This document shows positions 4,601 to 31,166 of a DNA stretch of 64,000 bases, one piece after another (position 1 is the stretch's first letter; every line of letters starts with the position of its first letter). Made by a program: the position numbers and the translations under genes. Source of the stretch: Rotaria socialis (Eukaryota); NCBI GenBank assembly GCA_905331295.1, contig CAJNYD010000012.1, positions 620,001-684,000 of the forward strand, given 5' to 3'. Below the pieces are notes generated by a model. That model was not told where the DNA came from, searched no databases, and worked only from the letters and a program-made list of their open reading frames with translations.

Positions 4601-6536
4601 ACAGTTTTTTCCCTCACAATGAATATTTTCCCAGGCTCAGCTAAACGAAAAAAAAACAAATTCTTCACAACCTAATCTCTGAATAAGTGTTCATTGAGAA
4701 AACTACGTATTACTTTTTCTCAAAATACGAAGATAAATGTGCAGATTGAATTAAGCAATGCTTACTGAATGAGACAAAAAAAACTTATCAATCTACGACG
4801 AACAAGAGACAACAAAGTCGTGCGCCATGGGAAAATTTCGAGGTTCGCACAGGTGAAGAATACGAAATAATAAGTAAGAACCTAAAACTTATTGCTTTAG
4901 CATAAGAATTTTTACTCTAAGCATTCGAATGAATTTCGAGAGCTTGATGTTTTTTTTTCTTCAGATAAACTTATTTTCGTTTTTCTTTATAAACAAGGTT
5001 ATTTTTTATGCGCTGAATATTCTACCAGTCACAAATAAATTCTACGTCATCCAATTGATAGACGTATTTAATTAACAAAAAGAAAGAAAGAAAAGAAAAG
5101 ATCCACAGGTAATTATTTTTTTTCTCTATAATTATGTTTAATCATCATCTAAAATTATACTTCACTATACTATCTCACATAGTTGAAATGAAATTTTACG
5201 ACTCTCATATAGATCGATGATATATCATTGAAACTAATTCAATTATTGAAGAGAATACGAACACAATTAATTTTTAACTATCACCCTGTAGAAAACTAAA
5301 ACAGAACATTAATTTTTTGCAAATAATAACGAAATTCTCACATATTGTTTTCTCTTTTCTTTTTCGGTTCGTAAATAGCTTGTCAATCATTATGAACAAT
5401 ATATACGAAAACTTGAAACTAAGTGTGAAAACATAAGTGATGAATACGAAAAACGTATTGAACAAGTAATTTCTAAAACGCATGAACAAGTGAAATCAAT
5501 GGAAGGTTTGTTTCAAAAGAAAATAGAATCCAATACATTCTACTAAAATATTTCGTTCTAGATGAATATGAAGCACGTTTTGCTAATCAACAAGCGGTTA
5601 TTAATGATCAACAAAAAATAATTCAAGCATTTAAAGATGAGGAAAATCGAGCTAAAACAGTTTTTGAAAAGCAATGCAAAATTCTCAGTGACCAATCATT
5701 ACGTGAAAAAAATGAAATTAAAGCAGTACGTCGAAACATTCAATCAGATTTTTTTCTTCAAAGCGAGCAGAGCTGCCAAAATTTTTGTTTTAGAAATAAA
5801 ATGTTCAATTCTTGAGGTATTATCGGATCTTCGAGAAATTTCAGAATACTCCTATTCTCGTTAGATATCGATAACTTCATCAGATGAGCTCATTTTTTCG
5901 AAACGATACCTGTGAAAATTGCCCTAGTGAAAAATTCGAAAAATCAATTTTTGTTAGTGACTGATTTAATATTGCGCTTGAAAGTTGAGCACCAAAGGCC
6001 TCGCTCAGCTAAAGTGTAATTTAACGAATGATGAAGTACGTTTGAAATTAAACATTTTCTTTTTTCGACAATAAAAAATCATAGAATTGAAATATCGAAT
6101 TTTTGGTTGTTGTAATGGCACCATCTGTTTTAATCATTACGATAATTTGATAGGCTGGAAACTTGCTTGTAACAAGCTTGATAAATTTTATAGGATAAAA
6201 AATTAGTTTGATTTTTATTTTATTCTCTTTTAGCAATTTGATCTATGTATGAAAAATTTGGAGAAGAATTTCAGTACATTAGCGTCAAAAAAAGAACAAT
6301 TGGAACGTAAATTATCAATTTTAAAAGAGCATCATAAAAACGAAATGCTGGAATTGCGTTTAACATATGAAAAAAATATTAAAGGTCTACTAACAAATGA
6401 TGTTCGTCTGGATTTAGAAAATACAATATTTTCATTGAAACAACAAGTCGTTTATTTACAACAACGTATTGCTTTTCTTCAAAAAGAACTCGAACAGTAT
6501 GTACAAATATATGGCCATCGACCGTCGTTGAAATGA
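1695..6536 (+). CDS. CEP112: Centrosomal coiled-coil protein, CEP112/CCDC46-like; multi-exon (approx. 1695-2210, 2274-2420, 2486-2668, 2956-3387, 3438-3523, 3582-3747, 5379-5505, 5562-5725, 6234-6536); 5' end may be incomplete
   Basis: Coiled-coil exons joined by GT-AG introns with compatible phase. The C-terminus YEKNIKGLLTNDVRLDLENTIFSLKQQVVYLQQRIAFLQKEL closely resembles the CEP112 C-terminus as I recall it. Confidence 0.75.
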
Positions 6537-7038
6537 TGACATGAAAAACAAAACTTCAATTTATTGTGTTTTTGTTGTGAAAAATTATTTTTTATAATCT
6601 CAATTTTTTAATTCTTTTTCATGTCTTCGTGCATTTCTCTTTTTGTTTCTGTGTAAATTTGAATAAATCAGTAGTTACAATAGTTATTATTTTGTTTCTA
6701 TCCGTTTCTCCGTAGAGTAACCATGTCCGTATGATTTTTGTGATGCATTTAAGGACAACATTTATTTTCTTTTCTTCTTCTTCTTCTTCTTCTCGCCTTT
6801 TATTTCTTCACATCGTCATAAATGCATACACGAACGGCAGCATTTTTCTGTTTATGATGTGTGCCGTACAATGCCTGATGACGTCATAGCGAAGCCATAT
6901 AGAAGTGGTCTAGTGTAGATATATATATATGAATATATCCACACATCCATTTCGCTTGATTCAAATCACAAGAGAAAAACGATGAAATCTCATTTATGAT
7001 TATTTTTTTTCATTTAATTTAGATTGACTATTCCAACG

Positions 7039-8130
7039 ATGGAGGTTTTTGAATCGTTCTATCGGAACCCAATCCTTCGTGAATATCTCAATCCAAAACA
7101 ATTACAAGTAACACCATGGGTGCTCGATCCAATCGGTATAAATCATCCATTTGTGTTTGATTTTGAAAAGAAATTTTTCGATAAAACCTATGCCCATAAT
7201 ATCTATAATTGGATGAACAAATGGTGGTGGTTAAGTATCGTCTATTCAATAATATATGTCGGCTTTATTTATTATGGTCGTTCATTGATGGAAAAACGTG
7301 AACGTTTTGAATTACGGTTGCCATTAATATTGTGGAATGTTGCATTGGCTTTATTTAGTATATTTGGCATGATACGTTGTGTACCTGAAATGATTTATGG
7401 CATAGATAAACGGGGCTTGCAATACACTATTTGTGATAATAGTAATATTTACGGTGTCACTGGATTTTGGTACGTAAATGTAATTCTATTTTTAGCTTAT
7501 TTTCGCGATTTCATTTTTAAGGATTACAATATTTTGCATATCAAAAGTTCCTGAACTTATTGATACATTATTCATTGTATTACGGAAACAGAAATTAATT
7601 TTTCTTCATTGGTTTCATCATGCTACTGTCTTAATTTATGCTTGGTATAGGTAAGAATTAATTGTTGTTGTTGTTGTTTTGATCCTAAAATATTAAAATT
7701 ATTGTTAACAGTTATCACGATTGGACAGCTAGTGGACGTTGGTTTGTGTTTCTGAATTACAGTGTTCACGGTAAGTTTTGAAATATATATACACATATAA
7801 TTTTTACGCAGTATTTTCATTTGTTTAGCATTGATGTATAGCTATTATGCATTTCGAGCTATGAAATTTCAGATACCAAAATGGATTAGTGTAACAGTTA
7901 CTACGTTTCAATTATCGCAAATGGTTGTTGGCTGCTTTGTTAATTATAAAGCATACATCTATAAACAAAATGGTGCAGCATGTGATGTTGCTTATGCTAA
8001 TATATTTTGGTCGTTTGTTATGTATGCGGTTTATTTTGGTTTATTTCTTCATTTCTTTTTTGTATCTTATTTATCGAAAAAGCCAACAGCCAAAGTAAGT
8101 TTTGAGAATGAACGTAAAAAGAACAAATAA
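7039..8130 (+). CDS. Very-long-chain fatty acid elongase (ELO/GNS1/SUR4 family, ELOVL6/3-like), 4 exons
   Basis: Spliced translation gives [27 protein letters not shown] (HxxHH box), [16 protein letters not shown] and a C-terminal lysine-rich ER-retention-like end (RKKNK). Confidence 0.93.
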
Positions 8131-8413
8131 AACTTTGGAATATGATTTCAAGATTACGAGTTAGGTCAAATGGTTTTTCTTTTTCTTTTTCTTTTTCTCT
8201 TATCTATGTTGTTACGATGTCGTAATTCTTTTTACATTAAAGCACGGAAGATCACCGAGTATCACCTTTTTTTTTCTTTGTTGATTGTAATCTATTCACA
8301 TGAAATAAAAGTTTGATTAAGAAAGTGACGGATAAATGAAGGTGTATGGTGATGCGTGTTGCTATCTGATATTTCTTTTGTACGGGAGAAAAAAAATGAA
8401 TGAAAAAAAGATC

Positions 8414-8487
8414 TGGTCCCTATGAGGATCGAACTCATGACCTCCGCGTTATTAGCACGGCGCTCTAACCAGCTGAGCTAAGGGACC
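8414..8487 (-). tRNA. tRNA-Ile (anticodon AAT)
   Basis: Minus strand reads GGTCCCTTAGCTCAGCTGGTTAGAGCGCCGTGCT-AAT-AACGCGGAGGTCATGAGTTCGATCCTCATAGGGACCA: cloverleaf with A and B boxes, followed by a T-run Pol III terminator. Confidence 0.96.
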
Positions 8488-9244
8488 GATGGCATTGAAG
8501 GAAAAACAAATTCAATAGATATTGATAATCGTTAGTAATTTCGTTCGATTTTTCATCTGCAATTCTATTCAACACAAACATCAAATAAAAACTGTACCAT
8601 AGCGACGCACTTATTGTTCTTTTATGTATGCAACGATTCTATATTGTTGCAACTTTAAAATAGTGTTCGTTACGTCAAAATAATTGATTTCGTGCCAACT
8701 AGGTTCGAATAGTTTTCATTGGTTTACTTTTTGATAACCGAATGATATGATACAAAGTAAACCCAAAATTTTCCAATGATCTTCACTCAGCACATTTCTT
8801 TCGTTTCAAACAGCATCTCAAGATGCAAGACATGAGAAATTCTTAATTTTTTTCGATTTTTACTTTTTAAGGACAGAAGAAAGGTTAGCACGTTAAATAC
8901 TTGAAAAATTCCTTATAAATAGTCATGCATATAACGAAATCGTTTTTGTTTCGAGAGAAATAGCGAGAAAAGAAACTGTAGGCTTTTTTTATTTAGACAG
9001 CGTGAGAGATTGTTCATTTTAATAATGGAGAGATGATAGAATTAATTGGTGTATGTATAGAATCTATCGGCTTATTTCTAGGGAACGTGTCTTTTTTTTT
9101 GTATTATAGAAATATACGAAAATAAAATTGATCCACAGCAGAAAAGTCAATGAAAATCGGTGTATTTCAAAAGCCACCAGTCTTGATGAATTGATTTGCT
9201 TTGTGGTAACGAGAACTATTATGAGAACATCGATTAGTAAATTA

Positions 9245-9560
9245 CCATTTGTTTTTTGTAGCATTGATTGTTTGGGCTGTGGTTCTTCTAAAATCGATGT
9301 TTGATAGATATTTATTTTAACCAATGGGTGTAAGCAATTCGATGAAGTGGTTTGAACAAATCCTGAATATGATTCTAATTGAATTTTCTCAAAAAATTCG
9401 ATAATCAACGAATGAAGTCGGGAAATGTAGTTGGTTGGTTTGGAAGAAAAATCCAATTATAGGATTATACTTGTACTCTCCAAGTTTCACAATTATACCA
9501 GTTGCTCCTCCGAGCAACAAACCTGAGCGAAAATTTTTAAGAGACTCACGTTCACCTAAA
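9245..9560 (-). pseudogene. Possible frameshifted coding exon of an unidentified gene
   Basis: Two overlapping ORFs (..RSGLLLGGATGIIV..VDYRIF and FEKIQLESYSGFVQ..) join with a 1-nt shift in a homopolymer near 9391-9396, and a GT donor follows near 9245. No family recognised. Confidence 0.2.
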
Positions 9561-9825
9561 AATAATTTCAATAAATCGACTCTGAAAGTCGTATTCGTCG
9601 TGTACCGAACAATTTTCGACCGGCGGTGAATGTGAATGTAGATGTGTGTGGATTAGAACTCTGATTTAAGTATGCAAGCTATCGGTACTGGCATCAATAT
9701 CCACATCCACATCCGCATTCAAATTCTGTTTTTTAATACAAACTTTTTCTGCGTCATTTTGTTTTTTCATTGCTAATATAATATTATTCTCTTTCTGTCA
9801 TCAGAAGAGTTTTATTTAATTTTTT

Positions 9826-10467
9826 TTGTTATTTGCAATACGATTGTTGAATTTTTTGTTCTACTTTTCAAGGCATAGAAATAATTTCATCCAATTGAAT
9901 ATTGCAATATCTAACTTGTCTCGTACAAAAGCTACCCAAAATAAAAAAAAAATGATTGAAAGGTGGAGAACATAATCTGCTATTGTTCGATATTGCCAAG
10001 GTTTCTTTAATTCTACTTACAAATAATAACAGAGATCGATGTATTTCAATCATCTCGAAAACAAAATCGACATAAGAGAGAGAATAATTCAATCTGTTTC
10101 AGTGAACAAAAGCATAAAGTATCGGAATAAACCTAAATTCAAGTAGAATTTCATCTATGCGCGCGTCTTATATTTCCAGAAACGTCTATTGTGAAGATGC
10201 ATACCAGGTACTGATAGACTCAACAACATTTTCAAATTGTTGATTAAGATTCATCTTCATTGCAGTAGATTTTAGAAAGTAAAATTTTTATTCCTCTAGA
10301 TGAGACCTGAGAACAGGATTGGAAAGCGCGAACATTTGTATGTCCCGTCACGTACGCATTCATTACGGACAGTTGAACCTACCATAAGTCCTTATGCTTC
10401 ATCGATGAATCCATCATATCATAGACAATGGAACTCATCATTTACAAACGTGAGCAAGTGAGTAACA
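9826..10467 (+). repeat. About 640 bp near-identical direct repeat, copy 1 (copy 2 at about 15446-16088)
   Basis: Sequence from TTGTTATTT.CAATACGATTGTTG to GTGAGCAAGTGAGTAACA recurs with only a few differences. Confidence 0.92.
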
Positions 10468-12303
10468 CGGATAAAATACACGAAATTGCGTGTAAACTAT
10501 CGTGTTAGAAGTAAGATAATTTCTGATTTCTTTCTAGAGGGATGGCAAAAGACACTGTGAAGCCTAAAAGATGTTCATTGTTTGTGTTTGTATGCCCAAT
10601 CGTGAGTGCATTGTTGGCCGCAGCTTTAACGACTGGCATATATGGAACGATTGCTTTAGTCACCAAAAAATCAGTAAACACAACTGTACTTATAGGTATC
10701 CTAGGTTTAATTTAATTGAAACATCTATGTGAAATTAAAGATCGTCGAATCTCGATATGAATGCTTTGCTTATGTTGATTTGTTTTTCTAGTTTGTTCAT
10801 ATTCAAGTCATAGTCATAAGGAGAGTATAATAATAGATGCAACGGTAAATTCATCTCGATCAACTTATCGAGACTCCTCCAAAAGAAAAGCAAGATACTC
10901 ATGAAAGAGTTCTTATCTGTTCAAGATGCTTCGGTCATGAATTTTGTGTTTCAGTTTAAATCAGAAGTAAACTAATTAGTGAAACTCTTTGAAGTTCTTT
11001 TCCCATAATTCAACATTTCGCAAGCATCTTCAGTTGTGGATGAATTATGATAAAACTGCTAAAAAACTAAATAAGCATCTACACTTCTAAGAAATCTTTC
11101 CTGCATAATAATAGAGCAACTACGAATATGAGCTCTAATATTTCACACAGCAGACTGTATCAAACAGGACTTCTGCCTTTTAATTGATAATGCTACTGGG
11201 ATTTTTCTGTCAAATTTCATTCACTGCAGCTACAACTAATGAAAATATTTTTTTTAGAGATGTTTTAATAATTTTAGTGTACAACTTCATTTACTTGTTA
11301 CGCTTATATGTTGAAAGTGAAGACTTCCTACGTGGAGTCGACTGGAGATTTACTGCGATACCTTCCATTTTGATAGAGGCAACAATTTCGCGTCTTATTG
11401 AAAGTTATAGAAAAAACAAATTAGTTTTATTTAAGTTACTTGACTAGTATTGGTTAGCTCCTCTTCTGTTAATCATGTCAATTCAATTTGTAAGAACTTT
11501 TTTGATATATAGTTAATATTGACGTTGAAGGGAAAGAAATTTGAGATACTGTTTTCATCTCAACACAAATCGTGCAGATTCTACATCTCTCTTAAATTAG
11601 TAATTAAGAAAATACATATGAACTATGGGCCACAACTATGTACAATAGAAAACTAGAATTCTTGATTTAATCAATTAAGATTATGATTGTTTCAGAGCTG
11701 CCAACTGGTACAGTTATTCTCTATAGCGGAAGTGCAGCTGAACTGTCAGATCAGAATACTCTATGGTTATTTTGTAATGGTTCAGCAGTATCACGAACGA
11801 CTTACCAAACATTATTTTCTGTGGTTGGCATTACCTACGGACTTGGTAATGGTATAGATACGTTCAATTTACCTGATTTTCGTGCTCGGTTTCCATTGGG
11901 CAGTCAAGGAACGAACGATACTTTACTCCCGAGTGGTGGCAATTCGACACATACTATCGTAACAGCAGAGTTACCTGCACATACTCATGATCAAGGTACA
12001 CTATTAACACAAACCAATGGCGCACATGCACATGGATATACAGATCCAGGTCACAGTCACACTGGAGCAACAACTAGCGTACTGATTCCTACGTATGGCT
12101 ATGGTACTCCGTGGACTGGAGGATTTGGTTTCACCATGACTTCTCATGTCCATGGAATTTATGCTGATGTCACTGGTATCACTATACAATCGAGTGGAAG
12201 TCATACGCATACAATCAGTGGATCTACAGGTTCAGAAGGGCAGGGTCAACCAATGAATATAATGCCACCCTATCAAACTGTTCATTACATCATCCGAACA
12301 TAA
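10300..12303 (+). CDS. Type II membrane protein with phage tail-collar domain and HxH tail-fibre-like C-terminus, copy A; exons 10300-10457, 10538-10695 (TM), 11696-12303; tentative upstream exons from about 10039
   Basis: Last exon carries the collar motif P.G..ILY.G...WLFCNGSAVSRTTY..LF.V.G.TYG.GNG..TFNLPDFR.RFPLG, then AELPAHTH...NIMPPYQTVHYIIR (microcystin-dependent protein / tail fibre type). Splice phases are consistent (AA|gt..ag|A; ATA G|gt..cag|AG). The middle exon encodes the hydrophobic stretch LFVFVCPIVSALLAAALTTGIYGTIAL. Confidence 0.85.
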
Positions 12304-12753
12304 AAATGAGAAGATACTGGTAACTGGACATGCAAATCAGACTTTGAACTTTTCCCTTATCCGAATCAGTTGTATTTCTCTATTACTATCAATAAAGAAA
12401 GTTGTTGTCTCTTTTTCTTAAATTTTACATAGAATCGAGGGTGTGAATAGAGATTTGTTTTTTTGCTGAAATTAAGATTTGATTGCTTTAGACTAGTATT
12501 AATTTCCAGCACTCTATTAATACCGTACAGGTTATCAATGTGGTCTGATTCGAGCGTATCTACAACCTTTGTACTCTCGGTGACCGTTATCTTTACGATT
12601 TGTGTGAGTCATGATAATGATTTAGTCGTAGATGCTAGATATCACGAAAGACAATTGGATGCTAGGCCTTTTATTTACAAAAATATGCTGTTCAACGACA
12701 AAACGATGTATGCTTATTTATTTAGTTGAATAAGAAGTGACAAATATTTCGCA

Positions 12754-13154
12754 TCAAAGAGGTACCAAGGTGAAACGTTGACTTGCTTGATCGTGACATC
12801 GGAATAATTGTAATGGATTGTTGTTGACTATTTGACCATTGGGTACATCTAAACATTTGCCCATAACATGGATACGATTTGCTCCGTCAATTGTGAAAAC
12901 TTGATTTTCCTGGGCAGAACGACAGTGAAATAGTTGTATAGATTGATGATCAACGGCTCTCGAATCAGGGATATCCAAACATTTGCCCATGATACGAATT
13001 GAACCATCGTGATTTAATTCAAATTGTTGATTTTCTCTTCCGTGACACCGGAATAATTGAATTTGGGCGTGGAGGACAGCATCACCACCAGCTATATCGA
13101 GACATTTGCCAGTTGTTGTGTTTCCACCAACGACAATCAGGAAACGTTTAGATG
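12754..13154 (-). CDS. Ricin-B-type beta-trefoil lectin domain exon (probably the 3' exon of the CBM14 gene)
   Basis: Three repeats of GKCLD...(I/L)QLF.C....(N/S)Q.F. No in-frame ATG at the 5' end, but a TTGTAG acceptor sits at 13155-13160. Confidence 0.85.
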
Positions 13155-13750
13155 CTACAAGACAGACGCGCACAGAGGATTAAATCGACACTGACGAAAT
13201 ACTTCACATTTAAGACTTTAGTTGGTGGAGTATTAAAGCATGCAGTTCGGTCAACGCAACTGCTGGAATTCTGCCATTTCCACGTAGAAAACACCTACGA
13301 TTCTTTTCTGTCAAAAGAGATTATTCTATGGATCTTTGATTACACATAACTCAATGGTTGTGTACGAGCTAGATTTCTACTTTCCTTAGAGTCATCAATC
13401 GTTAGAACAAAAATATTCCGTTTCAATCGAGAGCCATTCAAAAGCTGCTGGCAGCCTTTCTTTGCGTATTATCTTCAAACAATTTAAATTTTCTCTTAAA
13501 TGTAGAGCACGTGAGTGATGCACCATATTATGTGCTTTGTTTACATACAACCATCAACTAATTGACAAAATCTACTTGTCTAATCATAGGTATTAGCTTT
13601 TCCCCTCGCATAATTGAATCTCATCATATGTGACTATTTCGATTAGTTTCAAGTTCAAAATAAAACTCTCTGGGTATCACACAAGCAAGTGCTGTTTTGT
13701 TTAGAAGTCAATATTGTGTCGGCTAATAAGAAAAAGCAAAATCAACAGAC

Positions 13751-13961
13751 CTTGAACTGACGGCCATTCACATACATGACTGCTCTGGTCCCAAACTAAT
13801 CCTGATGGGCAAGGCATCAAAAATGCAGTTCCAGATGCACATTGATAGTATGAATGCTTATCTTCTGAATTCAAAAACAAACCATCAGCTGGACATACAA
13901 ATCCAAGAGCCATCGATTTTAACGAAACACATAAAAGTACGGCGATCAATATGCCTTTCAT
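13751..13961 (-). CDS. Signal peptide + chitin-binding peritrophin-A (CBM14)-like domain exon
   Basis: Signal peptide MKGILIAVLLCVSLKSMALG, then CPADGLF....D..SYYQC..G....MPCPSGLVWDQ...VCEWP. A phase-1 GT donor follows at 13750. Confidence 0.85.
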
Positions 13962-15445
13962 TGTAGGAATTTCTATGTCAATGATAACGGTATGTACGGG
14001 CAATAAAATACTTCTTATTTATATATAAAATCTATTTTGTAATTAGGCAAATACGCGAATATTCTTATCTGAGTATTGTATCAAATATTATTGACTTATT
14101 TGATCGTTTTCTTTCAAGCTGGTCCGCATAGTAGAAAATAAAGCTAATCCTTCTCTAATACATTAGTGGTATCATGCCATATGACTACAGACAAACCAGA
14201 GTGCATCGGCCATTGTAATATTATCTGGTATATTTTTGTTGTTTCTATCATTATAGTGCATTTATTTCACTCAAACTTTGCCAAGTATAGATAAAGCAAA
14301 AATTGCAAGTCATCGAGCGACTGCAAATTCAGAGAAAATTTTATATATTCTGATGGTTTATCAATCTATGCAGTCTTGCTTTTAAGTTTTTTTCGATACC
14401 GAAATTCATGGCAGCATAGAGCAGATTTTGACCGAAAGAAAGTTTTTACTCGTAAATCGATGCTTCAGAACAAAATTGGAGATTCTGCTGATCAAATTTT
14501 TGAAAAAAGAATATCTTTCTTTAACTTTAAAGGTGCGTGCTGGAGATTAATAGCCAATGCAATGTAATTTTAAATGGTTGTTCAACGAAGTGCATTTTTC
14601 ACTGTAACAAATATATTCAGACTACTTTCAAACATTGGTTTGGTTCGAACACTTTTTATCAACTTTTCCAGCAATCCAATTGAAAACTTATTTTGCTCAA
14701 ATGAGTCTTGCCCGTCTTTGTGAAGTTATTCAGTGCTCGCAATCGAAACAGAATAAACAACATATCTATATGAAACAGTTCGAAAATATCACGTTCTGAT
14801 ATTTGCTTAGATTAACTCGATAGAAATAATCGAATATTTCATTGCTTTTGATTGGTAAACTCTTCATATATATGATGTACTAACGTAAGATATATTCCCA
14901 ATGAACGGATTTATATGTTTAGTTTCGATTTTTTTACAGATGGCGTGAACGTCGTACAAGAGAAATTTCGCTCTTAGTGTTCATATCTAATTTGATTTTC
15001 AGATGACCTATGCAACCTGAAAATGATGAAAAATCGGCAGCAATTCACGAGATATTTCTTATCAAAAAACACAGTGTCAAAACATTGAATTCCATCGAGG
15101 CGAAACACATATGCTTCCACAGTAGATATATGGATCGATCAGGTTTCTTCGTTGTTCAATCATCTGCAAGCAAAACTAAAGATCACGAGATTGATCTTGT
15201 TGACTGTTCGATAGATTTAGATTCACTTTAGAAACTGCATCTTCTAGAAAACTTATTTTCGCTATTGATTTTGTTTTGTGTAATGTGTTTCTCTGATTGT
15301 AATCAGCATATCATTTGCATGCTCGATCGTTGCGAACGAATCAAATAGAATCCTTTGATGCTCACTCCATTTTTTTTCTGTAATCAGAAGAGTTTTATTT
15401 AAATGATCCAATAAAAACAAAAACTCGAACAATGCAGCTTTTGTT

Positions 15446-16088
15446 TTGTTATTTACAATACGATTGTTGAATTTTTTGTTCTACTTTTCAAGACATAGAA
15501 ATAATTTCATCCAATTGAATATTGCAATATCTAACTTGTCTCGTACAAAAGCTACCCAAAATAAAAAAAAAAATGATTGAAAGGTGGAGAACATAGTCTG
15601 CTATTGTTCGATATTGCCAAGGTTTCTTTAATTCTACTTACAAATAATAACAGAGATCGATGTATTTCAATCATCTCGAAAACAAAATCGACATAAGAGA
15701 GAGAATAATTCAATCTGTTTCAGTGAACAAAAGCATAAAGTATCGGAATAAACCTAAATTCAAGTAGAATTTCATCTATGCGCGCGTCTTATATTTCCAG
15801 AAACGTCTATTGTGAAGATGCATACCAGGTACTGATAGACTCAACAACATTTTCAAATTGTTGATTAAGATTCATCTTCATTGCAGTAGATTTTAGAAAG
15901 TAAAATTTTTATTCCTCTAGATGAGACCTGAGAACAGGATTGGAAAGCGCGAACATTTGTATGTCCCGTCACGTACGCATTCATTACGGACAGTTGAACC
16001 TACCATAAGTCCTTATGCTTCATCGATGAATCCATCATATCATAGACAATGGAACTCATCATTTACAAACGTGAGCAAGTGAGTAACA
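15446..16088 (+). repeat. About 640 bp near-identical direct repeat, copy 2
   Basis: Matches 9826-10467 by direct reading. Confidence 0.92.
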
Positions 16089-17397
16089 TTGATCAGTTCT
16101 AGCTTCATCTATTAACTGATGAAATGCACGAGAATACGTGCAAGATATCGTGTTAGAATCATGGATATTTCTCCTTTCTTTTTAGAGGGATGTTTAAAGA
16201 TACTGCCGAGCCTAAGAGTAGTCCATTATTCATTGGTATCATTTCAGGCGTTGCTGCATTGTTGGCAGCAATATTTGCAATGGCTATATATGGAGCGGTT
16301 GCTTTAAGCACACCTCAATCAACAAATACGACCACTGTTATAGGTAAAGACGTTTATTTGAAACTTACATTGAAAGCGAGAAGATTCTTCAAGAGTCTTC
16401 GGGTTTATCTGTTAAATAGAAGTTGGTTTCAGTGAGAATGAAATAATCATTTAGCGTAGTTACTCATGGATCTTTCCTTCAAAAACATGATTGAATGTTT
16501 TTTTTACATACCTATATAAAACTAAAAGTTAAATTACATTCAGTCTTTAGAACATTTGACTCATATCAAGTTAACAGTAAATACGGCTGTACACTGATGT
16601 GTAGAACGGCAAATCGAATAGGATTAAAGTACGTAGTCTGCAATGAATGCAAACAAAATAGTTTTGAGGGCGTATTGATGAGGAAAAAAGTTCTGTGTCT
16701 CAGAAATCGATTTCCTGCAATTGAAAACCATTTTAAGTATTGGGCAAACTTTCATAATTTCTTAACAACTGTTGTCATTGTTTCAGATTTTCCAATTGGA
16801 GCAACTCTCATGTACGCCGGAAGTGCATCAGCACTAGCCGATCAGAATAGTCGATGGTTATTTTGTAACGGTTCTGAAGTATCACGAACAACTTACCGAA
16901 CATTATTTTCTGTGATTGGTATTACCTACGGAGTTGGTAATGGTATAGATACATTTAATTTACCTGATTTTCGTTCTCAATTTCCGTTGGGTGCCAATGA
17001 AACGAACGATACGCATCTGGCAATGGGTGGTAGCGCATCGCATACGATAACAGTAGCCGAGTTGCCTGCACATACCCATGACCAAGGTACACTACTAACG
17101 CAAACCGATGGCGCACATACACATGGATATTCAGATCCAGGCCACAGTCACACTGGAGCAACAACTGGCGTATGGATTCCTACGTATGGCTATGGAATTC
17201 CATGGACTGGCCAATGGGGCTTTACCGCGTTGTCCAATCATTTGCATGGAATTTATGCTGATGTCACTGGTATCACTATACAATCGAGTGGAAGTCATAC
17301 GCATATAATCAGTGGATCTACAGGTTCAGAAGGGCAGGGTCAACCGATAAATGCATTGCCACCCTATCAAACTGTTCATTACATAATTAGAGTATGA
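15921..17397 (+). CDS. Type II membrane protein with phage tail-collar domain and HxH tail-fibre-like C-terminus, copy B; exons 15921-16078, 16186-16343 (TM), 16787-17397
   Basis: Paralog of copy A with the same exon sizes (158 and 158 nt) and phases. TM segment is LFIGIISGVAALLAAIFAMAIYGAVAL; the collar domain begins DFPIG after the cag acceptor ending at 16786. Confidence 0.85.
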
Positions 17398-18183
17398 AAA
17401 TTGACAGATTTTTCTGACTCAACATGAGACTATCGATTGAACTATTGTCTCTTTACAAGTCTATTGTTTCGTCTTAAGAAAAACGAAGAATTTTTGTCTA
17501 CATTTCCAAGATGCTTCAGAAATGCATGTATGAACTGCAACTTTTTTTAGTATGATTCAGAGTTTTGCTGCGAGAAATGGATACTTTGCTTTCGTGTTCA
17601 TCGATTTAGGACGACTTTAAGATGGCAATGGTTAATGCATTTTCTGTAAAGTGCTGAGATAGGATATGAATAATTTTCAACATCTATCCAAACTTTTTTG
17701 AACATTTGCGATGTAAAATTTCATTAGAAAATCGATTGCTAACCGTACACCTGATGATATTGGAAACTGTGTTTCTACGAATTCGATACGTTAACATCTT
17801 GTTTAAACTTGTACCAATCTTTTTTTTTTAGAAGATATTTCCATTTATTGATTTGCTTCTTTCAATTCAGCAATAAACAATAATATGATATACAATTAAA
17901 AACAAAAAGAAAATTTAAACTGTTGAAGTCAAGTGGACGGATAATGCATCGAAACAGAAGAAAACCGGCGATGCATACAGAAATAAATCATGATTACACC
18001 TGAGACAAAACAAAGAAACATATATCTACCAATCTATCAAGGAGAAGAAGTAATTCAATGAATAAGAATCTATCGTATGAGAGAGAGAGAGAGAGAAAAA
18101 AAAAAATATATATATATATATATGTATATTACGTATTAACAAAAAACAATCGAAAAGCCAAACGAAAAAAAGTGCACAGTGAT

Positions 18184-21100
18184 TTATTTTCCTGTTTTCT
18201 TATTTTGCTGTTGTTGTGATTGTGTAGTGAATAGTTTTAAACTATGACGTACAAATTTTTTAATGCCACTATGTGATGGTGTCTGTGTTTGCTGTTGCTG
18301 ATGTTGATACTGTTGCTGGTGCTGCTGTTGTTGTTGCTGTTGCTGTTGCTGTTGCTGTTGTGGCCATGTTAATTCATCGTCATCTTCGCCATCTTCTTGC
18401 TGTTCATTAATAATCGTTCGTGCAGTAGCATAATGTATTGCTTGCTGATTGTCAGGCGTTTTTAATTTCGAACGATTATGATCGGGCAATGAATTTGTTT
18501 TCTGTTCAAATTGTTTTGCTAGCGCACGAACATTCGGCTGCTGATGTTGCCTATCGTCAGTTTCATTTTCGCATAATGTTATTGTAGCATCATCATCGTC
18601 TTCGCCAACGCCGCTATTCAACTCAGATTTTTGATCTTGTCGATCATCGTGACGATGTACAGCTGACATAATATCGTCTTCACTTCGATACATTTTCATT
18701 TTAAAATTTCTATGCGTTGGACGTTGAAATTTATGTGTGCGTGGCGATAGAACAGTGGGTGTTGCCGAATTTTGACTAGCTAATAATATGGTTGATGCTG
18801 ATTTTGGTCGGCGATCACTATCAAGTGTGATATGACAATGTGGAGCTAATGGTGCAGCTTGTTTGTGCATTGCTGGTGTCATATGAAGACATTCAGTTGA
18901 TTTTCTTAATGGCGTAAAATTATTTTCTGTAGTTTTAGATTTTGTTAGAGTTGTTGATGTAGAAGAATCATAGACCATTGTACGACGCTGTGGAGTTACT
19001 AATGACGAATTTGATGACATTGTTGAATAGATGGACGATGTTGTCGATGATGATGAACTTAATGAATCTAAGCAATCTTGAGCCATTTGAGATAGAAGAC
19101 GATCTAATTCGAATACATGCATATCGATAGTTGTATCTGGCCTAGATTTATTTTAAAAAAACAAAATAATATTTACATTCCAATGAAAATATTTTCACTT
19201 ACACTCCTTGACTTTTCATCGCTTGTGTCATTTTCTCAAAAAGTTCACGACGAATTTCTTTAATCATTGAATTACGACTTCGAGCTAGTTCAGTTTGGAT
19301 TTGTTTTTTTATTGAGATTTCGAGATTGTCCATATAATGAGCTATTCCCACTTGAATAAGAAATGAAAACGAATTATCGGATTAATTAGTATGATACAAA
19401 AACGAATTCTCATAAGCAAAATTAAGATGCATTAGTTATGTACGAAATTAAGATTTTTCAAAATTAGGAGAAAAGCTTTCCGATAGAGATAATATTTCAT
19501 AGAAGTTTATAAGAAAAATTACTGTATGACTTAGAATGACAGTTTCGGTTTCGAAAAGAATTGTCTCGCCGTATGTATTGACGTTAATTGCCGCTATAAA
19601 CTACTGAATACGAGTATTGTTTTCGAAAAATCTTATATCGTACATGTCTATGAACAAAAATAATATACCTCGATGGTGAACATCAAAAATCATCTTGCAT
19701 GTAAGTCGTAAGAGAGCAAGCATTTCAATTGTAAACAATTCTAGAATGGATGCAGCAAATAAATAATATGTACATGCAATGAACGTGTATCTATCCGTTG
19801 ACTTAACCTCATGCAATGTGTAAATATATGAATAAACGGATATTGTTTTTCTTTTCTATTAGGTAAATAGCATAGAGCAATAGATTCAATGTCGAGCAAA
19901 AATGTACGTGCACTCTTTTTTTTGTTGTTGTTTTAAACGGTATCTACCTCTCTCTTACTTGAACAATCGATGAGCTCTTTTTCAATATAGGATTGTTACC
20001 TCGCAATTTTTCAACTGTTGCCATATAATCGGATTTAATTTCATTTATTGATATATCTGTCTGAAATAGAAAAGAAACAAGATAGTTTATAGACGAGTAG
20101 GAAAAAATGTAAAATACTTGAACATATTCGGGGACACAAATTGAACGTGCTGAAGCACGTTTTTGAGCAGACAAACGTTCTTGATGAAGTTCACGTTTTA
20201 TTTCATCCATAACTATTGTATGTTGTTTAATCATCTCGGCTATTTTCTTTTGTAATGAAGAAATCGTTTGTTGATATTCACTTTCTTGTTTAGCGTGCAC
20301 TGCTCGTTCCTGATTCAGTCTATAAATAGGAATTGTTAGGACGTGTTCTGCTGACGCTCATGATCCTGGATCATATTTATTTAATAGATTCCTCCAGAAA
20401 TGCATATGGTATCTGAATCTGAGGTGGGCAAACTACTCGAAGTACTCGTGCTTGGAAATTTTATTTTCCGAATTCGAGATAAAGCATTTATCTCTTTGTA
20501 TTTTTCAACAAAGTTGGCTGCACAACAAAGCACGCCACTGATATCTTCTCTTGCCGATCGGCGCAAATATGTTTGAAAATTTGTACAACGTATAGTCGTG
20601 TAATAATCGCCATATGCCAGTCGATTTTCTTTCTTCGTTTCATATAAATATATTTAGTCGTTGCAGAGCATTAAGCCCAGGGATACCGCGACAGTGGAAG
20701 GATGGAGATCTCCCGTATTCGAAAAATTGTCTTGCATTGTGTTTCACAAAATGAAACTTATACTACACCAATCTCAAAATTCGAAAGATCTGGCAACGTT
20801 GGTTACTCCGCCTCCAACATTTTTGATAAATAGAATTTTATAAGTTACGCCCCACCCNNNNNNNNNNATTCTTCCCCCCCCCCCCCCCCCCAGTATTTGG
20901 TTGCTTGGGACACTCCTGATTAAGTGTATATTTTTACAAACTAGTTTGAAAACTTCTAGTCTCACTGATACAATAATTAGTATGGGTAATCGTACTCCCC
21001 GCTCTGTGATCATAATTTGAAAGTCAAAATTAAAATCTAGTACGTCGTCTATCAAGAATTACGACTAAAAAGTCAGATACTCCGTATCCCTTGCATAGTG

Positions 21101-24100
21101 AAATAGAAATCGTTTTCGACATACGTGTCATTCGTTTGCTCAAGCAATTTAACAAGATGATCAACACGATTTTGTAAATTTTCTTGTCTATTTCTATTAT
21201 CTTGTTCGAGAGTATATTTTTCTTTGATTTTGTTGATTTCATCAAAATGACTTATTTTTAGTTGCTCCATAGTTTGTTGTGACTCGCTCAGTTGTTGTTT
21301 TAATTGTTCACCACGTGTTTGTAAACGAGTTTGTTCATGTTGAAATTCATTGATAACATTATTATATCCATCGTCTAAATCTTTTTTCATAATTTGCATT
21401 TGTTTCTGATGTGAGTCAATAAGTTTAGCTTGACTTTGACTTAATTCAATATTTTCACGATATAGTCGATCGATTTCTGCTCTATACATTTTTTTCACTT
21501 CTTCAATATCTTGTACTAAAGTATTCGATTGATTATTAGGCATGAGAGTTTTTTGTTTTTCGAAATCATTTGTTAATTGTTGCCGTAGTTGATTCATGTC
21601 GTGTTGATATTGTTTATGATCGCGTTCATAACGACGATTATATTCCTGTTCAAGACTGATTTTTATTTTTTCGATTTCTTGTTCTAAATGAGAATCAGCT
21701 AAATTAAGTGCCCGATTGGCTTCTTGTAAACGTTGTTCATATTGAGTTTTTTCTGTTTCGAGTGCCGCTAATTTTTCACATGTGATTTCTTTTTCCTATG
21801 GGGAAACAAATTATACAAAACGGTTATAGATTTTCTTTACAAAGTACTGAAGGGTATAAGTAAGACGCGAAAGAGCTGACAATGTTTCGGCTCGTTCTAT
21901 GGCAAACATCGTTCACCAGAGTAGTAAACCCCTTACCTGTATATCTTTTGATCTTGTTTGATTTAATTCTAAAACTTGTTGTTCATACTGTTGAACTTGT
22001 TTTTGTAAATTATTTATTGTTGGCTCATTTTGTGATGAACGTTCTTTGAAGAGTTGAAAAGATTTTTCTAATGCATCGAATTGTATTTTCAACTGATTGA
22101 ATTCATTTTCTTTGTTTGTTAACATTTCCCGCGTTAATCTCAAATCCATTTTATTTGTATCACGTTGCTGAGTTATTTTTTGTAAATTACTTTCTAATTT
22201 CAAACGATATTCTTCATATTGACTAACAGCATTTTCATAATTGTTTATACGAGTTTGTAAAGCTTCAACAGTTTGTTTTAAATCTATTTGAACGTCATCT
22301 GTTTGCCTGGTGGAATGATTTAATTCATCTTTTTGTTTTTCTATTAGTTCATTCAATAGGACGATTTCATTCGATAATTGCTCTTCAGTTTTTTCGTAGG
22401 TCTCTTGCAATTGATTTTTTTCCCGATCCAGTTTTTCTATTGTTTGTAGAAAATTTTGATTTTCATCTTCTAGTGTTTTACAATTAACTAGCAATTCTTT
22501 TTGTTTTAAATTCAAATCCGAATAATCATGTTTCAGTTGTTCGAATTCTTTTTCAACGTAAACTAAACGACTGTGTGCATCATCTAAATGAAATTATTAA
22601 TAAAAAAAATTGTTTGTTTTACAAAAAAATCATGTTATTCAACTTCCAGCCTATATTACAGTATGTTTTATCGTATGCTTAGTTGATGTGGAACATTAAT
22701 TTACCGAGAATGCTGTGTTCAAGCGGAAACCCAACTTTTTTTGAATTGTTGACTAGGATTTTTCGCTATCTCTGTTGTCACGTTCTACATATCGTGTCTT
22801 GATTTATATGGTTTCAACTGAATAGCAAGCGTTGCTATTGTTAGAAACGAGACACCCTGATATGAATAATGAACAAATAGAACGTTTGTATCGAATTTCG
22901 AGGGTTTCATCAAATTTATATGTGATAGTCAAAAATTGAGTAGTATCGATTTGAATACTGTTGAAAGGCTACTGTTTCAAATAAACATCTCCTAGCATGA
23001 CGTTTAGTTTTTCGAGGTTTTCAATGCAGTATCGTGTAAGAAAAATTGATTCTATAAACTTACCATTGGCTTTAAGTCGATCAAGTTCAATATTTAATTC
23101 ATTAATCAGTTTTTCGTGATTGATTTTCATTCGTTCAATATCTTGATGGAATCCTTTTGCTTGTTGTTCTAAATCTTCACTATATTTTGCTTTGAGCATT
23201 TCAGCGTCTTGTTCAACATTGTTTTTAAAAGATAAATTTTTATCGTTATATTCTTTATCAAGTGTTCGACGTAAATCATCTAACTTGACTTTTATTTCAT
23301 GTTCGAATTTCGCTCGAAGATTATCTTCAATGAGATTTTTCTCGTGGCAAACATCTTAATGAAACAAAACAAAAATCAGAATTTGAAACTGCGATTTTTT
23401 TATTCTCTAAATATCAATACGGGGATTCTGCAGTCGAACTGTATCGAGCGATCGGCAATTCATTAATGTTCATCCGCGTACATATCAGAGTACTTTTAGT
23501 TCGTCTCTCTCAGGGGAAAAAGCCCGCATTAATTTCATACCGATATAAAGTTGTTTTGTTTTATCTAAATCAACAATATCTTCACGCAATTGTTCGATAA
23601 TTGTTTGCAGTTCATGTTTGTCATAGTCAGATTTTTCTTGTTGGTTGGCATAATCTTTTTTGAGTTTTTCAATTTCAGTTGTTAGACTATGTATTTGTTC
23701 CATATGAATACTGTTCGTAATAATTGTCTCATCGGAGCTAATCGTGTCTTTGTGTGACAGTTCATGAATTTGACGTTGCAATTCTTCATTGATTTGAATA
23801 AGATTTCTTTCGTTCGATGCAAATTCATCAATACGTTCTTTTAAATTATGATTTTCGTTCAGTAAAGATTCATTTGGATCATCGAGACTCGTTGAATTGT
23901 GTGGCACAACTTGACGGTTCATACTAAATCGAAAATTATTAGAGAAAATACTTGTCTTTTTATTCTATCAAACCTTGATAATTCATTAACAGAAATACTT
24001 GATATACCAAACAAATCCTTATTAACTTCATGTTCTGATACTCCAAGACGTTCGCGTAATGTTCGAATTTCAGCCTAGATTAAATTGGAAAAAAAGTAGA

Positions 24101-25984
24101 AAAATTACCAATTCGAAGTAAAAATTAGAGAATGTCATAAGCATCGAGTTACCGATTGCGCCACTTAAAACTAAAATTTTCAGGATTTTACTTTTAATTA
24201 ACTGAATGCAACCTACCCATGTAGTCATCATCATCATGATAGCACTATATTATCATCACTGCTCTTCTTTGTTTTTCGTTCGTTTTGTTATCTTACATAT
24301 TAAAGAAAAAGCAGATAAAGAAAAGGTAACTACAAGTTTGCGGTTATTTTTCACGAAAATCAAAAGAAGTTGGTAAATTTATTTTCATAGATAATCAGGT
24401 ATGGCGTTCGTAGAATGCTAAGAAGTTTTGAATTACCTGTAATTCTTGGCAAGTATTTTCGATTTTTTCTCTATCTTCAGTCATACGATTTAATTGTCGT
24501 TTTGTTTCTGTTTGATTAAATGTATCCATTGATTTCGTAGTTAACAAATCAGTATATTGTCGTTGACAATCATGCAATTGTTGATTTAAATGACTGATTG
24601 TTTCCATTCTTTCGAAGATGACCTAGAATTATAAAACAAAATCTACGTATTCAATTCGTTTGTTTAATTATTACTTTTTCATTATTTTTACAAGCAGTTT
24701 CTAATTGAATACGAAATTCATCAACTTCAATCGTCTAAATATTCGCGAGAAAAAAATCTTGTTTTCAATGAATAATTGTTTTCTTAATTCAAACCTTTTC
24801 TTGTAAATTCATTTGTGTAATTTGCAATTTTTCATTCATATTTATCATTTCTTGCTCGTGTTTTTCACGTGTACTTGCTAAAATCATTTCACAATCTTGT
24901 TGAGTACGCGCAATAGATTCGAATCTTTGTAGTTCATTAACTTTTCTATGCAGTGAATCGATTAATGATTCTGCATCATCTAATTTCTTTTCGAGCTATA
25001 CAAGAAAAAAACATTTCATTTTTATTTTTTTTACCGAAAATTGATTTTACTTGAGTTTTATTTCCTTCCAGTTGTTGAATTCTTAATTCTGCATCTTTCG
25101 TTGTCCGTTGTAATTGATTGTTAGTTTCAATTAACTCTTCGCATTGTCTTGTTATTGATTGATAACGTTGTTCACAATCATATTTAGCTCCTGGTAAAAC
25201 AACAAAAATAGATCATTTAAAAACGCCCAATGCGGCATTCTATGTTTACTTTCGCTTAATTCAATTTTATGTTTAAGAACACGTAGATCACTAGTATATT
25301 TTTCATGATATTCGGTACAACGATTTTCCAGTTCAGTAATTTTTCGTTCTTTCACATTGCATAAAATACGAAATTTATTCAATTGATTCTGCAGATCAGA
25401 TGAGTTGCTGGACGAAGTTTGATACATAAATTGTGCTTGCATAGGATCGATTAAATCGATTGTTGGCAAAGAATCAAAGTATTGAATACCTGTCGATACT
25501 GAGTTATTATTATTATTATTATTATTCGTTTGACGATTAGGATTTTGATAATGAACTAGAGCAGAATTTTTTGAGCTAAATTGAATTTCTTGTTCAGTAT
25601 TATTATGTTCATCGAATTGCTGATATCGTGGATATGTATATTGATTATGATCATCAAACTAGGCGAAAGAGATGAGACGAGATAAAAAAAAAAGAACAAA
25701 GGTAGATGCTGAAACATACTCGACGAACATCTGTTGATGCTGACGGTGGAACTAATGGCGGAGGAGTAGAGACAGCTGGAGTAGAATATAATGGCTGTTG
25801 AAATAAATGATTCCGACGATGCATTCTTAATTAATGAGAGAATATATATTTCTAAATGTTTTTATTCATTTTAGTACATATTTTAATGATTGTTAATATT
25901 TCTATTTTTTGGAATACAAATCATCTGTCTACCTCGTTTTTCTTTTTACAAACTGCAAAACTAAGGTCTTACTCATGCTGCTGC

Positions 25985-26015
<31 letters not shown>

Positions 26016-27115: not shown

Positions 27116-27752
27116 GATATCAGATTGCAAGAAAAATTATATGCTATTATGGATGATAGCCTTGATGATATTGTACACGTGAGATACTTGTCTCTCGTTA
27201 TGGCAGTTCGATACGACCCTTCAGTCTTCATTTTCATGTTTTTGTTCAAAAATCTGCATAAAAATCTTGGACGAGAAATGTATCTTATGAAACGTTTTTT
27301 TAACGCTTGCAATCCAAGACAATGTACATATAAATATCATCATAGAGTTAGTAATAACAGAGTTTTGGTTGAAGAAATATTGGCACCACTCGCGTAGATC
27401 AACGCGACATTTCTCTCGAAAGTTCTGTTTTATTCTAATGATTTAGTCGAACATTGTTAGGTTACCGTTCTATAGCCAATAGTCATGCTAAGAAAAAGTT
27501 CATCTTCACTCATCAACCAACAACGTCGACTAGTGTCCTCTCTGAGTCATATCTAACACCGTGTGATATTGAGTTACTGATAAAAAAAAAGAAGAGAAAA
27601 GACAATAGTATATCCTATCGTAAAGAGCGAACAGGTAGAACGATAAACGACACACGTATCACTTTTATATTGATATCATAAGACGAGTTGATTCGACCTT
27701 CGAAGCTCATTTTACTTCAAATCAAATCGTCATCAATAAAAATCGATTTCCT

Positions 27753-30921: not shown

Positions 30922-31166
30922 TGAAGGAAAGGGAAATAAATAGATAGAACACCCTATCATATACATATATGAGCATCAAAATGATCTACAATCGGAAATG
31001 ACACACTTAAAAAAATTACTTTTTTTTTCTTCTTTTACACATTACAGATTGTCTCTATCTATCTATCTCTTTCGTGATTGTCACTTTTTTTTCTACTATT
31101 TATGCAACATCAATTCTATTGAGTTTAACGGTGAGATTAAAAAGACGACCGTTTATTGTTAACATT

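Follow-up and report, generated by a model that had tools for sequence, protein, structure and literature searches.

In the bdelloid rotifer Rotaria socialis, a transcribed gene of two exons joins an animal-like CBM14 exon to a ricin-type trefoil of likely bacterial affinity

A 64-kb window of the Rotaria socialis genome (64,000 nucleotides, positions 620,001 to 684,000 of contig CAJNYD010000012.1; "the window" denotes this whole stretch, and all coordinates below refer to it) holds, on the minus strand, a two-exon gene for a small predicted lectin that consists of a predicted signal peptide, a chitin-binding CBM14 (peritrophin-A) domain, and a three-site-type ricin-B trefoil, and carries no catalytic domain. 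As read from the sequence, exon 1 occupies positions 13961-13751 and exon 2 positions 13154-12754. The first exon opens with ATG at 13961, encodes the predicted signal peptide (residues 1-20, MKGILIAVLLCVSLKSMALG, 13902-13961) and the four-cysteine CBM14 domain (residues 21-70, 13751-13901, Pfam PF01607), and ends in GTT CAA G at 13751, the first base of a split codon, with GT following at 13750-13749. The second begins at 13154 with CA TCT AAA CGT TTC, encodes the ricin-B/CBM13-type beta-trefoil (residues 71-203, coding part 12757-13154, Pfam PF00652), and closes with the stop codon TGA at 12756-12754. Between them, at the domain boundary, lies a GT..AG intron of 596 nucleotides (nt) and phase 1 (13155-13750), which ends in a pyrimidine-rich tract followed by TTGTAG, the last base being 13155. 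The 5' untranslated region extends at least over 13962-13995, where no ATG occurs, and the 3' untranslated region over 12655-12753, with AATAAA at 12722-12717 and 12675-12670. Joining the two exons by script yields an open reading frame (ORF) of 203 amino acids (aa), with the junction ...CEWPSVQ-A-SKRFLIVVGGN; the product is identical, letter for letter, to the R. socialis model P0045, deposited as "unnamed protein product [Rotaria socialis]" and named a chitin-binding type-2 domain-containing protein in UniRef. A preliminary description of this DNA, made from its letters, had proposed these splice boundaries (CAA G before gt, CA after ttgtag), the 596-nt phase-1 intron, and the in-frame join, all of which hold.

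The predicted structure is used in transcripts. Four sequencing runs (X1-X4), all in the form of assembled contigs, were compared with positions 12400-14300. X1, X2, and X3, which come from three studies, each contribute one contig that skips exactly from 13154 to 13751 (596 nt), the skipped ends reading CT..AC on the plus strand, that is, GT..AG on the strand of the gene; the shorter side of each joint measures 199-245 nt. X4 contributes only a 176-nt piece of exon 2. The X1 contig, which runs from 13995 to 12691, shows no difference from the window, and those of X2 and X3 are about 95% alike. In the X2 contig, 23 T residues precede position 12655, a poly(A) tail on the gene strand, next to the second AATAAA. 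The intron and both flanks of the gene are devoid of contig cover in the interval compared. Over positions 6500-26000, the three introns of the neighboring ELO/GNS1-SUR4 fatty-acid elongase gene (7021-8058, plus strand; introns of 52, 61, and 58 nt) are likewise skipped, by contigs from as many as four runs, and intergenic DNA has no cover, so that the runs behave as transcriptomes, and no contig of X1-X4 in this interval joins the lectin gene to any neighbor. Being contigs only, these data carry no readable information on rare isoforms, transcript ends, strand, or expression level. The locus is confirmed as a real, spliced, transcribed two-exon gene whose exon structure and both domain assignments are direct observations.

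The junction seen in these contigs bears on two other ways of reading the locus. The CBM14 and ricin ORFs could belong to two independent genes, the joined contigs being assembly chimeras or reflecting an intron-less DNA copy elsewhere, and some facts lean that way: the nature of the runs, labeled "RNA?", is a guess, the deposited models include some with the ricin domain only (P0049, 134 aa) or with a start at Met17 (P0047, 187 aa), and models from the bdelloid Didymodactylos carnosus lack CBM14. However, three contigs from three studies have an identical joint with canonical GT..AG ends, 199 nt or more from the nearer contig end; the frame is kept across it, and the product is conserved in at least five named Rotaria taxa. 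The ORF of exon 2 has no ATG and only 8 codons ahead of the acceptor, and the very same runs splice the ELO gene and leave intergenic DNA uncovered. The two-gene reading is therefore highly improbable and close to refuted, and the single gene spliced at 13751/13154, as originally predicted, stands on three contigs from three studies. The preliminary description had also suggested a short CBM14-only isoform made with a nearer acceptor. The corresponding AG is present at 13692-13693, and its use would remove an intron of 59 nt and leave the CBM14-only product with 22 residues of tail, but none of the three spanning contigs uses the 13751/13691 junction, and rare forms could still exist; the 20 nt upstream of this acceptor are 50% pyrimidine, against 70% for the acceptor that is used.

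The first exon is animal-like in its affinities, as had been proposed. Its ORF matches CBM_14 (PF01607) with an E-value of 9.1e-12 and 45.4 bits (cut-off 22.1), over profile positions 1-48 of 53, so that the last five positions are unmatched. In a phmmer search of the PDB, the top matches are the chitin-binding domains of animal chitinases (6g9c, 1.1e-11; human chitotriosidase, from 1.6e-9 for 6so0 to 1.1e-7), followed by a mite allergen (2.7e-4) and tachycitin (8.7e-4), and fungal Avr4-type CBM14 domains reach only 3.1e-4 and 0.07. The nearest Atlas clusters are arthropod peritrophins, all with scores below 0.9, and serve as a lead only. W57 and W66 align with aromatic residues of the chitinase domains in the PDB alignment. 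There are four cysteines (C23, C41, C51, and C64), the same four in all full-length orthologues aligned, and the protein does not have the CBM14 hallmark of six cysteines in three disulfides; it is filed under CBM14 by profile score and is a reduced, two-disulfide-type form of the domain. A cysteine in the tail of the alternative product (...ALAC...) was considered as the missing last one and set aside as a weak candidate, the canonical partner cysteine being absent in all orthologues. Ahead of the domain, residues 1-20 comprise a basic n-region, a hydrophobic core of 11 residues, and A-x-G before the predicted cleavage site; in the AlphaFold (AF2) model, residues 3-15 are helical at low confidence (predicted local distance difference test, pLDDT, about 54). 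These features suggest that the protein is secreted, and in the rotifer lectin survey of Gerdol 2022 (PMC8878817), SignalP 5 placed its relative from R. sordida among the secretory proteins.

The second exon encodes a ricin-type module. Its ORF matches Ricin_B_lectin (PF00652) with an E-value of 6.2e-24 and 85 bits (cut-off 29), over profile positions 7-126 of 126, and consists of three subdomains of the form GKCLD...QLF.C...(N/S)Q.F, whose terminal motifs NQQF, NQVF, and SQRF are spaced by 42 residues; the repetition is visible in the DNA as well, between 12842-12873 and 12968-12999, with a period of 126 nt. The AF2 model has a mean pLDDT of 87.1, with blocks at 85-97 over residues 71-203, and as a predicted structure it retrieves 182 PDB chains with Foldseek at E<=0.001, topped by CBM13 and ricin-type chains, the best being Streptomyces xylanase CBM13 domains (5gqe, 1.8e-9; 1knl, template-modeling (TM) score 0.87, root-mean-square deviation 2.1 A, 28% identity). 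A beta-trefoil fold is thus predicted by the model. The Asp of CLD, the Gln and the aromatic residue of QLF, and the Asn-Gln before x-F presumably correspond to the sugar-binding set of ricin B and CBM13; in an alignment of 20 rows, conservation of this set in subdomains alpha and beta is complete or reaches at least 90%, and the sole variable position of gamma is the Asn, replaced by Ser in Rotaria.

The junction of the two modules coincides with an intron that keeps the frame: the phase-1 intron falls between residue 70, where CBM14 ends, and residue 72, where the trefoil starts, which is the arrangement expected of exon shuffling. It is about ten times longer than the introns of the neighboring ELO gene; it was examined as a possible repeat or transposon, but no other copy of it was found in the 64-kb window. 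Related sequences retain what appear to be traces of the same boundary. In the 20-row alignment, ricin-only ORFs called from other contigs open with residues such as ...LFLIAS or ...LFFLAS immediately ahead of KRFLI, which is what translation of an acceptor tract would give, and one protein, P0012, carries a 15-residue insert, GMSKSVFYYIQSFFV, at exactly the boundary spot that reads as a translated 45-nt GTATG...TAG intron. Because of these apparent acceptor tracts and the insert, the same boundary can be posited in the relatives, which suggests that the position of the intron is common to them and that its length in R. socialis is derived.

Models that combine CBM14 with the ricin-type trefoil are also present in R. 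magnacalcarata, R. sordida, Rotaria sp. Silwood1, Rotaria sp. Silwood2, and two further sources. Over the trefoil, the identity to the R. socialis protein is 95% in R. magnacalcarata, 80% in Silwood2, 76% in Silwood1, and 74% in R. sordida (P0011, 206 aa). A second R. sordida copy, 82% identical over the trefoil, lies inside P0062 and P0063, and a second Silwood1 copy inside P0064; in the phylogenetic tree discussed below, the Rotaria sequences form two paralogue lineages. Compared with the X2 and X3 contigs, the coding sequence shows 14 synonymous and 6 non-synonymous differences, a ratio of non-synonymous to synonymous rates (pN/pS) of about 0.12 in a table that omits sites near contig ends and joints; the fused gene is under purifying selection. 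In D. carnosus, a trefoil of the same type occurs without CBM14.

Some of the deposited relatives have more complex architectures. P0062 and P0063 from R. sordida and P0064 from Silwood1 show the lectin fused to an ion-channel or astacin fragment, with the join at or near the lectin signal peptide, and look like merged models of neighboring genes rather than real architectures. In P0067 (D. carnosus, 354 aa), the trefoil, at 55% identity, comes after a fragment of a matrixin and a jacalin-type domain, on their C-terminal side. Provided that the models are right, the trefoil module has been combined more than once, P0067 being a second, different chimera.

Where the trefoil came from is a separate question from the reality of the fusion. 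A word-indexed search with the trefoil retrieves bdelloid proteins down to 59% identity, followed by P0022 (52%) and P0025 (50%), after which identity falls to 35% or less; with P0022 as the query, P0054 was added. These three orphans are metagenomic proteins of 153-164 aa, each made of a contiguous Sec-type signal peptide and a single trefoil. An exhaustive phmmer search of 1.84 billion representative sequences gave 6868 matches at E<=0.001; among the best 150 of these, only 10 reach 50% identity (eight of bdelloid type plus P0022 and P0025), and the other 140 stay at or below 41%. The longer proteins number 195, and the 120 listed include five rotifer models and 34 organism-named non-rotifer matches, all bacterial, so that among the matches listed the best relatives outside Rotifera are non-metazoan; 32 of the 34 are, going by genus, presumably Actinomycetota. 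No organism-named animal other than rotifers occurs among the 120 long matches listed or the 44 near-length ones. A scan of one genome per prokaryote species gave 93 confirmed relatives; the 79 loci kept belong mostly to Actinomycetota, with some Myxococcota (Polyangiaceae) and few others, at 25-39% identity, and none of these 79 resembles the orphans. One of the nearest protein rows, P0253, is from Cystobacter fuscus. A metagenome scan gave 78 loci of at most 37% identity, among which there were no rotifer contigs and no contigs of P0022, P0025, or P0054. In the Atlas, 25 of 30 ricin matches fall in the Pfam family set of the top three clusters, 94-100% bacterial and mainly Actinomycetota, again a lead only.

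Solved structures give the same ranking. With a profile built from ten bdelloid-type trefoils (a single-sequence version was run as well), Streptomyces CBM13 domains come first in the PDB (2.6e-19 to 4.7e-17), plant lectins next (from 2.2e-16), and animal proteins last, namely the sea-cucumber lectin CEL-III (1.2e-8) and animal N-acetylgalactosamine (GalNAc) transferases (4e-6 for GalNAc-T9 to 4e-4). An unrooted IQ-TREE analysis of 81 rows and 133 columns, with a bootstrap that had not fully settled, included 24 subfamily members, 36 other proteins selected by their name or their profile score, and 21 loci from prokaryotes, each standing for one genus or family, and excluded some 200 further proteins, the remaining genome loci, and all metagenome loci. 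The 21 bdelloid-type rows and the three orphans form one clade (support 100/100) among bacterial rows; the bdelloid-type rows by themselves group at 93/76 on a long stem (0.65 changes per column), the orphans are their sister (99/84), and P0201 and P0195 come next (97/83). This topology fits a single acquisition in an early bdelloid.

Taken together, these observations make it probable, in our view, that the gene encodes a predicted secreted two-module lectin in which a native exon for signal peptide and CBM14 acquired a bacterial-type trefoil as its 3' neighbor by exon capture; the product may act as a tether between chitin and a second glycan. The preliminary description had called the trefoil bacterial in style and foreign. 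The first part is borne out, the domain being closer to bacterial, mainly actinobacterial, CBM13 than to animal relatives; the second rests on a ranking of similarities and on a tree without metazoan members, so that a chimeric origin, with one native exon and one foreign module, is likely but not proven.

Several observations weigh against this interpretation. As regards origin, identity to named bacteria is only 25-41%; the bacterial nature of the orphans is judged only from their Sec-type signal peptides and amino-acid make-up; the tree has no metazoan R-type rows, every named non-rotifer row being bacterial through sampling; and there is no compositional trace of transfer, the G+C content (GC) being 0.403 in exon 1 and 0.405 in exon 2, with 0.29 at third codon positions, so that any transfer would be old. 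As regards function, with four rather than six cysteines chitin binding is not assured, and the stacking aromatic residue of all three trefoil sites is Phe (Q-x-F), not Trp or Tyr. The guessed label of the sequencing runs, noted above, belongs here as well, as does the finding that in a paper on fungal challenge of bdelloids of the genus Adineta (Nowell 2024, PMC11258130) the word "lectin" does not occur and the single occurrence of "ricin" is in the sarcin-ricin loop.

The trefoil could instead be an old, vertically inherited animal R-type domain that diverged rapidly in bdelloids, its bacterial likeness then resulting from the dominance of bacterial sequences in databases and from a conservative fold. 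R-type domains are common in Metazoa (19.2% of the modules in a CBM13/ricin-B network; PMC11212257, a paper that makes no mention of rotifers), and the low identity to named bacteria, the unremarkable composition, and the long bdelloid stem are all compatible with such descent; because the unrooted tree has no metazoan R-type rows, it alone cannot reject it. Against vertical descent, the best animal chain in the PDB trails Streptomyces CBM13 by about 11 orders of magnitude, named non-rotifer animals are absent from the long and near-length matches listed, the nearest outsiders carry contiguous prokaryote-style signal peptides, and foreign-looking phage-tail-collar genes, described below, flank the locus. 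Furthermore, Gerdol 2022 (PMC8878817) reports A. ricciae, D. carnosus, and three monogononts as lacking a secretory R-type lectin of this kind and calls the R. sordida protein unrelated to those of Brachionus. On balance, vertical descent appears unlikely.

If the trefoil is indeed foreign, the following sequence of events can be envisaged. A bacterial lineage akin to the source of the three metagenomic stand-alone lectins would have passed the trefoil horizontally to an early bdelloid, and the fusion would have arisen through exon capture at a phase-1 intron. The resulting protein would be secreted, its CBM14 end would bind chitin, and its trefoil could bind a second glycan at up to three sites; the ligands of ricin-type trefoils are most often of the galactose/GalNAc type. 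Such a protein might tether or agglutinate chitin-bearing material, fungal cell walls being the preferred target and the rotifer's own chitinous matrices the alternative. The role of a cross-linker or agglutinin of chitin and glycan is thus a conjecture drawn from the domains, and defensive recognition of fungi in particular is a tentative proposal. The broadest version of the scenario, in which a bacterial stand-alone lectin lost its own signal peptide, was captured by an animal exon, and became a domesticated inter-kingdom pattern-recognition lectin, with two paralogue lineages in Rotaria and reuse of the trefoil in Didymodactylos, is close to an even call, leaning slightly to the negative.

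A structural or housekeeping role is rather doubtful, but nearly as likely as antifungal defense, and the data presented here do not separate the two. The protein could bind chitin of the rotifer itself, that of the jaws, the eggshell, or the lining of the gut, and connect it with glycoproteins in the manner of a peritrophin. Animal CBM14 proteins are mostly modules of peritrophic matrices, cuticles, or chitinases, and exon 1 has its best counterparts in the PDB and the Atlas among chitinase domains and peritrophins; transcript contigs are present in three runs without a known challenge; and the strong purifying selection (pN/pS 0.12) would suit such a function. Conversely, a single CBM14 domain cannot by itself cross-link chitin, most invertebrate R-type trefoil lectins that occur as free proteins serve in agglutination or pattern recognition, and small proteins with a single CBM14 domain, such as tachycitin, are antimicrobial.

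The genomic surroundings are those of an animal. The window has a GC of about 31% and contains an innexin gene of at least three exons (31011-32682, plus strand), a member of a family confined to Metazoa and hence a marker of animal DNA for the window, as well as the ELO gene, an rRNA adenine dimethylase, zf-MYND exons, a tetratricopeptide ORF of 790 aa, and an ORF with a DUF3504 domain. Bacterial contamination was considered and is ruled out by the linked animal genes and the spliceosomal intron; in view of this linkage, the window is bdelloid nuclear DNA and not a contaminant. The lectin gene is both integrated in the host genome, through its linkage to the innexin and ELO genes and its intron, and expressed, as judged from the transcript-like contigs. 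It is flanked by two paralogous intron-less ORFs on the plus strand (11671-12300 and 16495-17394), 5.09 kb apart and 76% identical at the amino-acid level, that carry Collar (phage-tail) and Gp10_C domains, have the phage long tail fibre 8kec as their only PDB match (1e-6), and are touched by no contig of runs X1-X4. These ORFs look foreign in an animal genome, and foreign genes tend to cluster in bdelloid genomes.

Three other ORFs of the window are recorded here as separate observations. The 790-aa ORF (27639-30008, plus strand) is uninterrupted and consists mostly of TPR_12/TPR_10 repeats (E 2.4e-76), an unusually long intron-less ORF for this window. The ORF at 46824-48530 (plus strand, 569 aa) combines DUF3504 with a QRICH1-type domain; DUF3504 is linked to Crypton-type tyrosine-recombinase transposons, and on that ground this ORF is possibly a domesticated or mobile element. 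A 322-aa ORF at 18187-19152 (minus strand) has no Pfam match and contains, at 18284-18360, a TGTTGCTGN-type repeat with a period of 9 nt, which on the coding strand specifies a tract rich in Gln and Asn.

For massive horizontal gene transfer into animals, the textbook example is the bdelloid rotifers. Less well documented, to our knowledge, is the way in which an ORF of foreign origin comes by a useful partner domain and a secretion signal of eukaryotic type. If the trefoil is of foreign origin, the gene would be a compact model of domestication by exon capture and a candidate antifungal recognition protein, and if the capture scenario is correct, it would offer a clean worked example of the path from a foreign gene to an animal secreted protein.

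Each half of the protein has counterparts among solved structures. The trefoil is most similar, in sequence and structure alike, to the CBM13 domains of Streptomyces xylanases (1knl, 1isv, and 5gqe; 2.6e-19, TM score 0.87), with which it shares the three-fold repeat, one cysteine pair per subdomain, and the pattern CLD...Q-x-aromatic...N-Q; unlike the R. socialis protein, those domains are attached to GH10 enzymes and carry Q-x-W instead of Q-x-F, and identity is about 28%. Exon 1 is closest to the CBM14 domains of animal GH18 chitinases (6g9c; chitotriosidase, 6so0 and 5hbf) and of small proteins (tachycitin, 1dqc; mite allergen, 4zce), with E-values of 1.1e-11 to 9e-4 and a common pattern of aromatic, Pro, and Gly residues, FxCPxDGLF...YxQC...CPxGLxW...CxW; in contrast, 6g9c has five cysteines in the stretch where the window protein has four, and the latter is not attached to an enzyme.

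Among rotifers, Gerdol 2022 (Mar Drugs 20:130, PMC8878817) screened six genomes, and the sections devoted to these proteins describe two kinds of chimeras relevant here. The VOMI-VOMI-ricin lectins of Brachionus are likewise secreted chimeras with a C-terminal ricin-type domain, but they have a different N-terminal module and are stated there to be unrelated to the R. sordida lectin. The R. sordida protein itself is a secretory R-type lectin with an N-terminal chitin-binding domain, reported in the same sections as missing from A. ricciae and D. carnosus, and has the same layout as the protein described here: a signal peptide, a chitin-binding domain, and a single ricin-type trefoil in about 200 aa, in the same genus. 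It comes from another species, and P0011, which we infer to be this lectin, belongs to a different paralogue lineage. Sections 2.5 and 4.1 and Tables 1-2 of that paper do not mention an intron, a bacterial affinity of the trefoil, or the genomic neighborhood, and the paper's three mentions of horizontal transfer are all general. A claim of bacterial origin for this lectin did not turn up in the literature, in a search that did not extend to the supplementary lists of horizontally transferred genes in bdelloid genome papers, which may hold it. The gene is, then, essentially known already, and with the R. socialis model public and the R. sordida architecture in print, the advance lies in an interpretation to be tested, not in a new kind of system. 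To the R. sordida lectin, the present analysis adds transcript proof of the junction in R. socialis, the phase-1 intron at the domain boundary, the bacterial affinity of the trefoil, the three orphan relatives, and the foreign-looking flanks.

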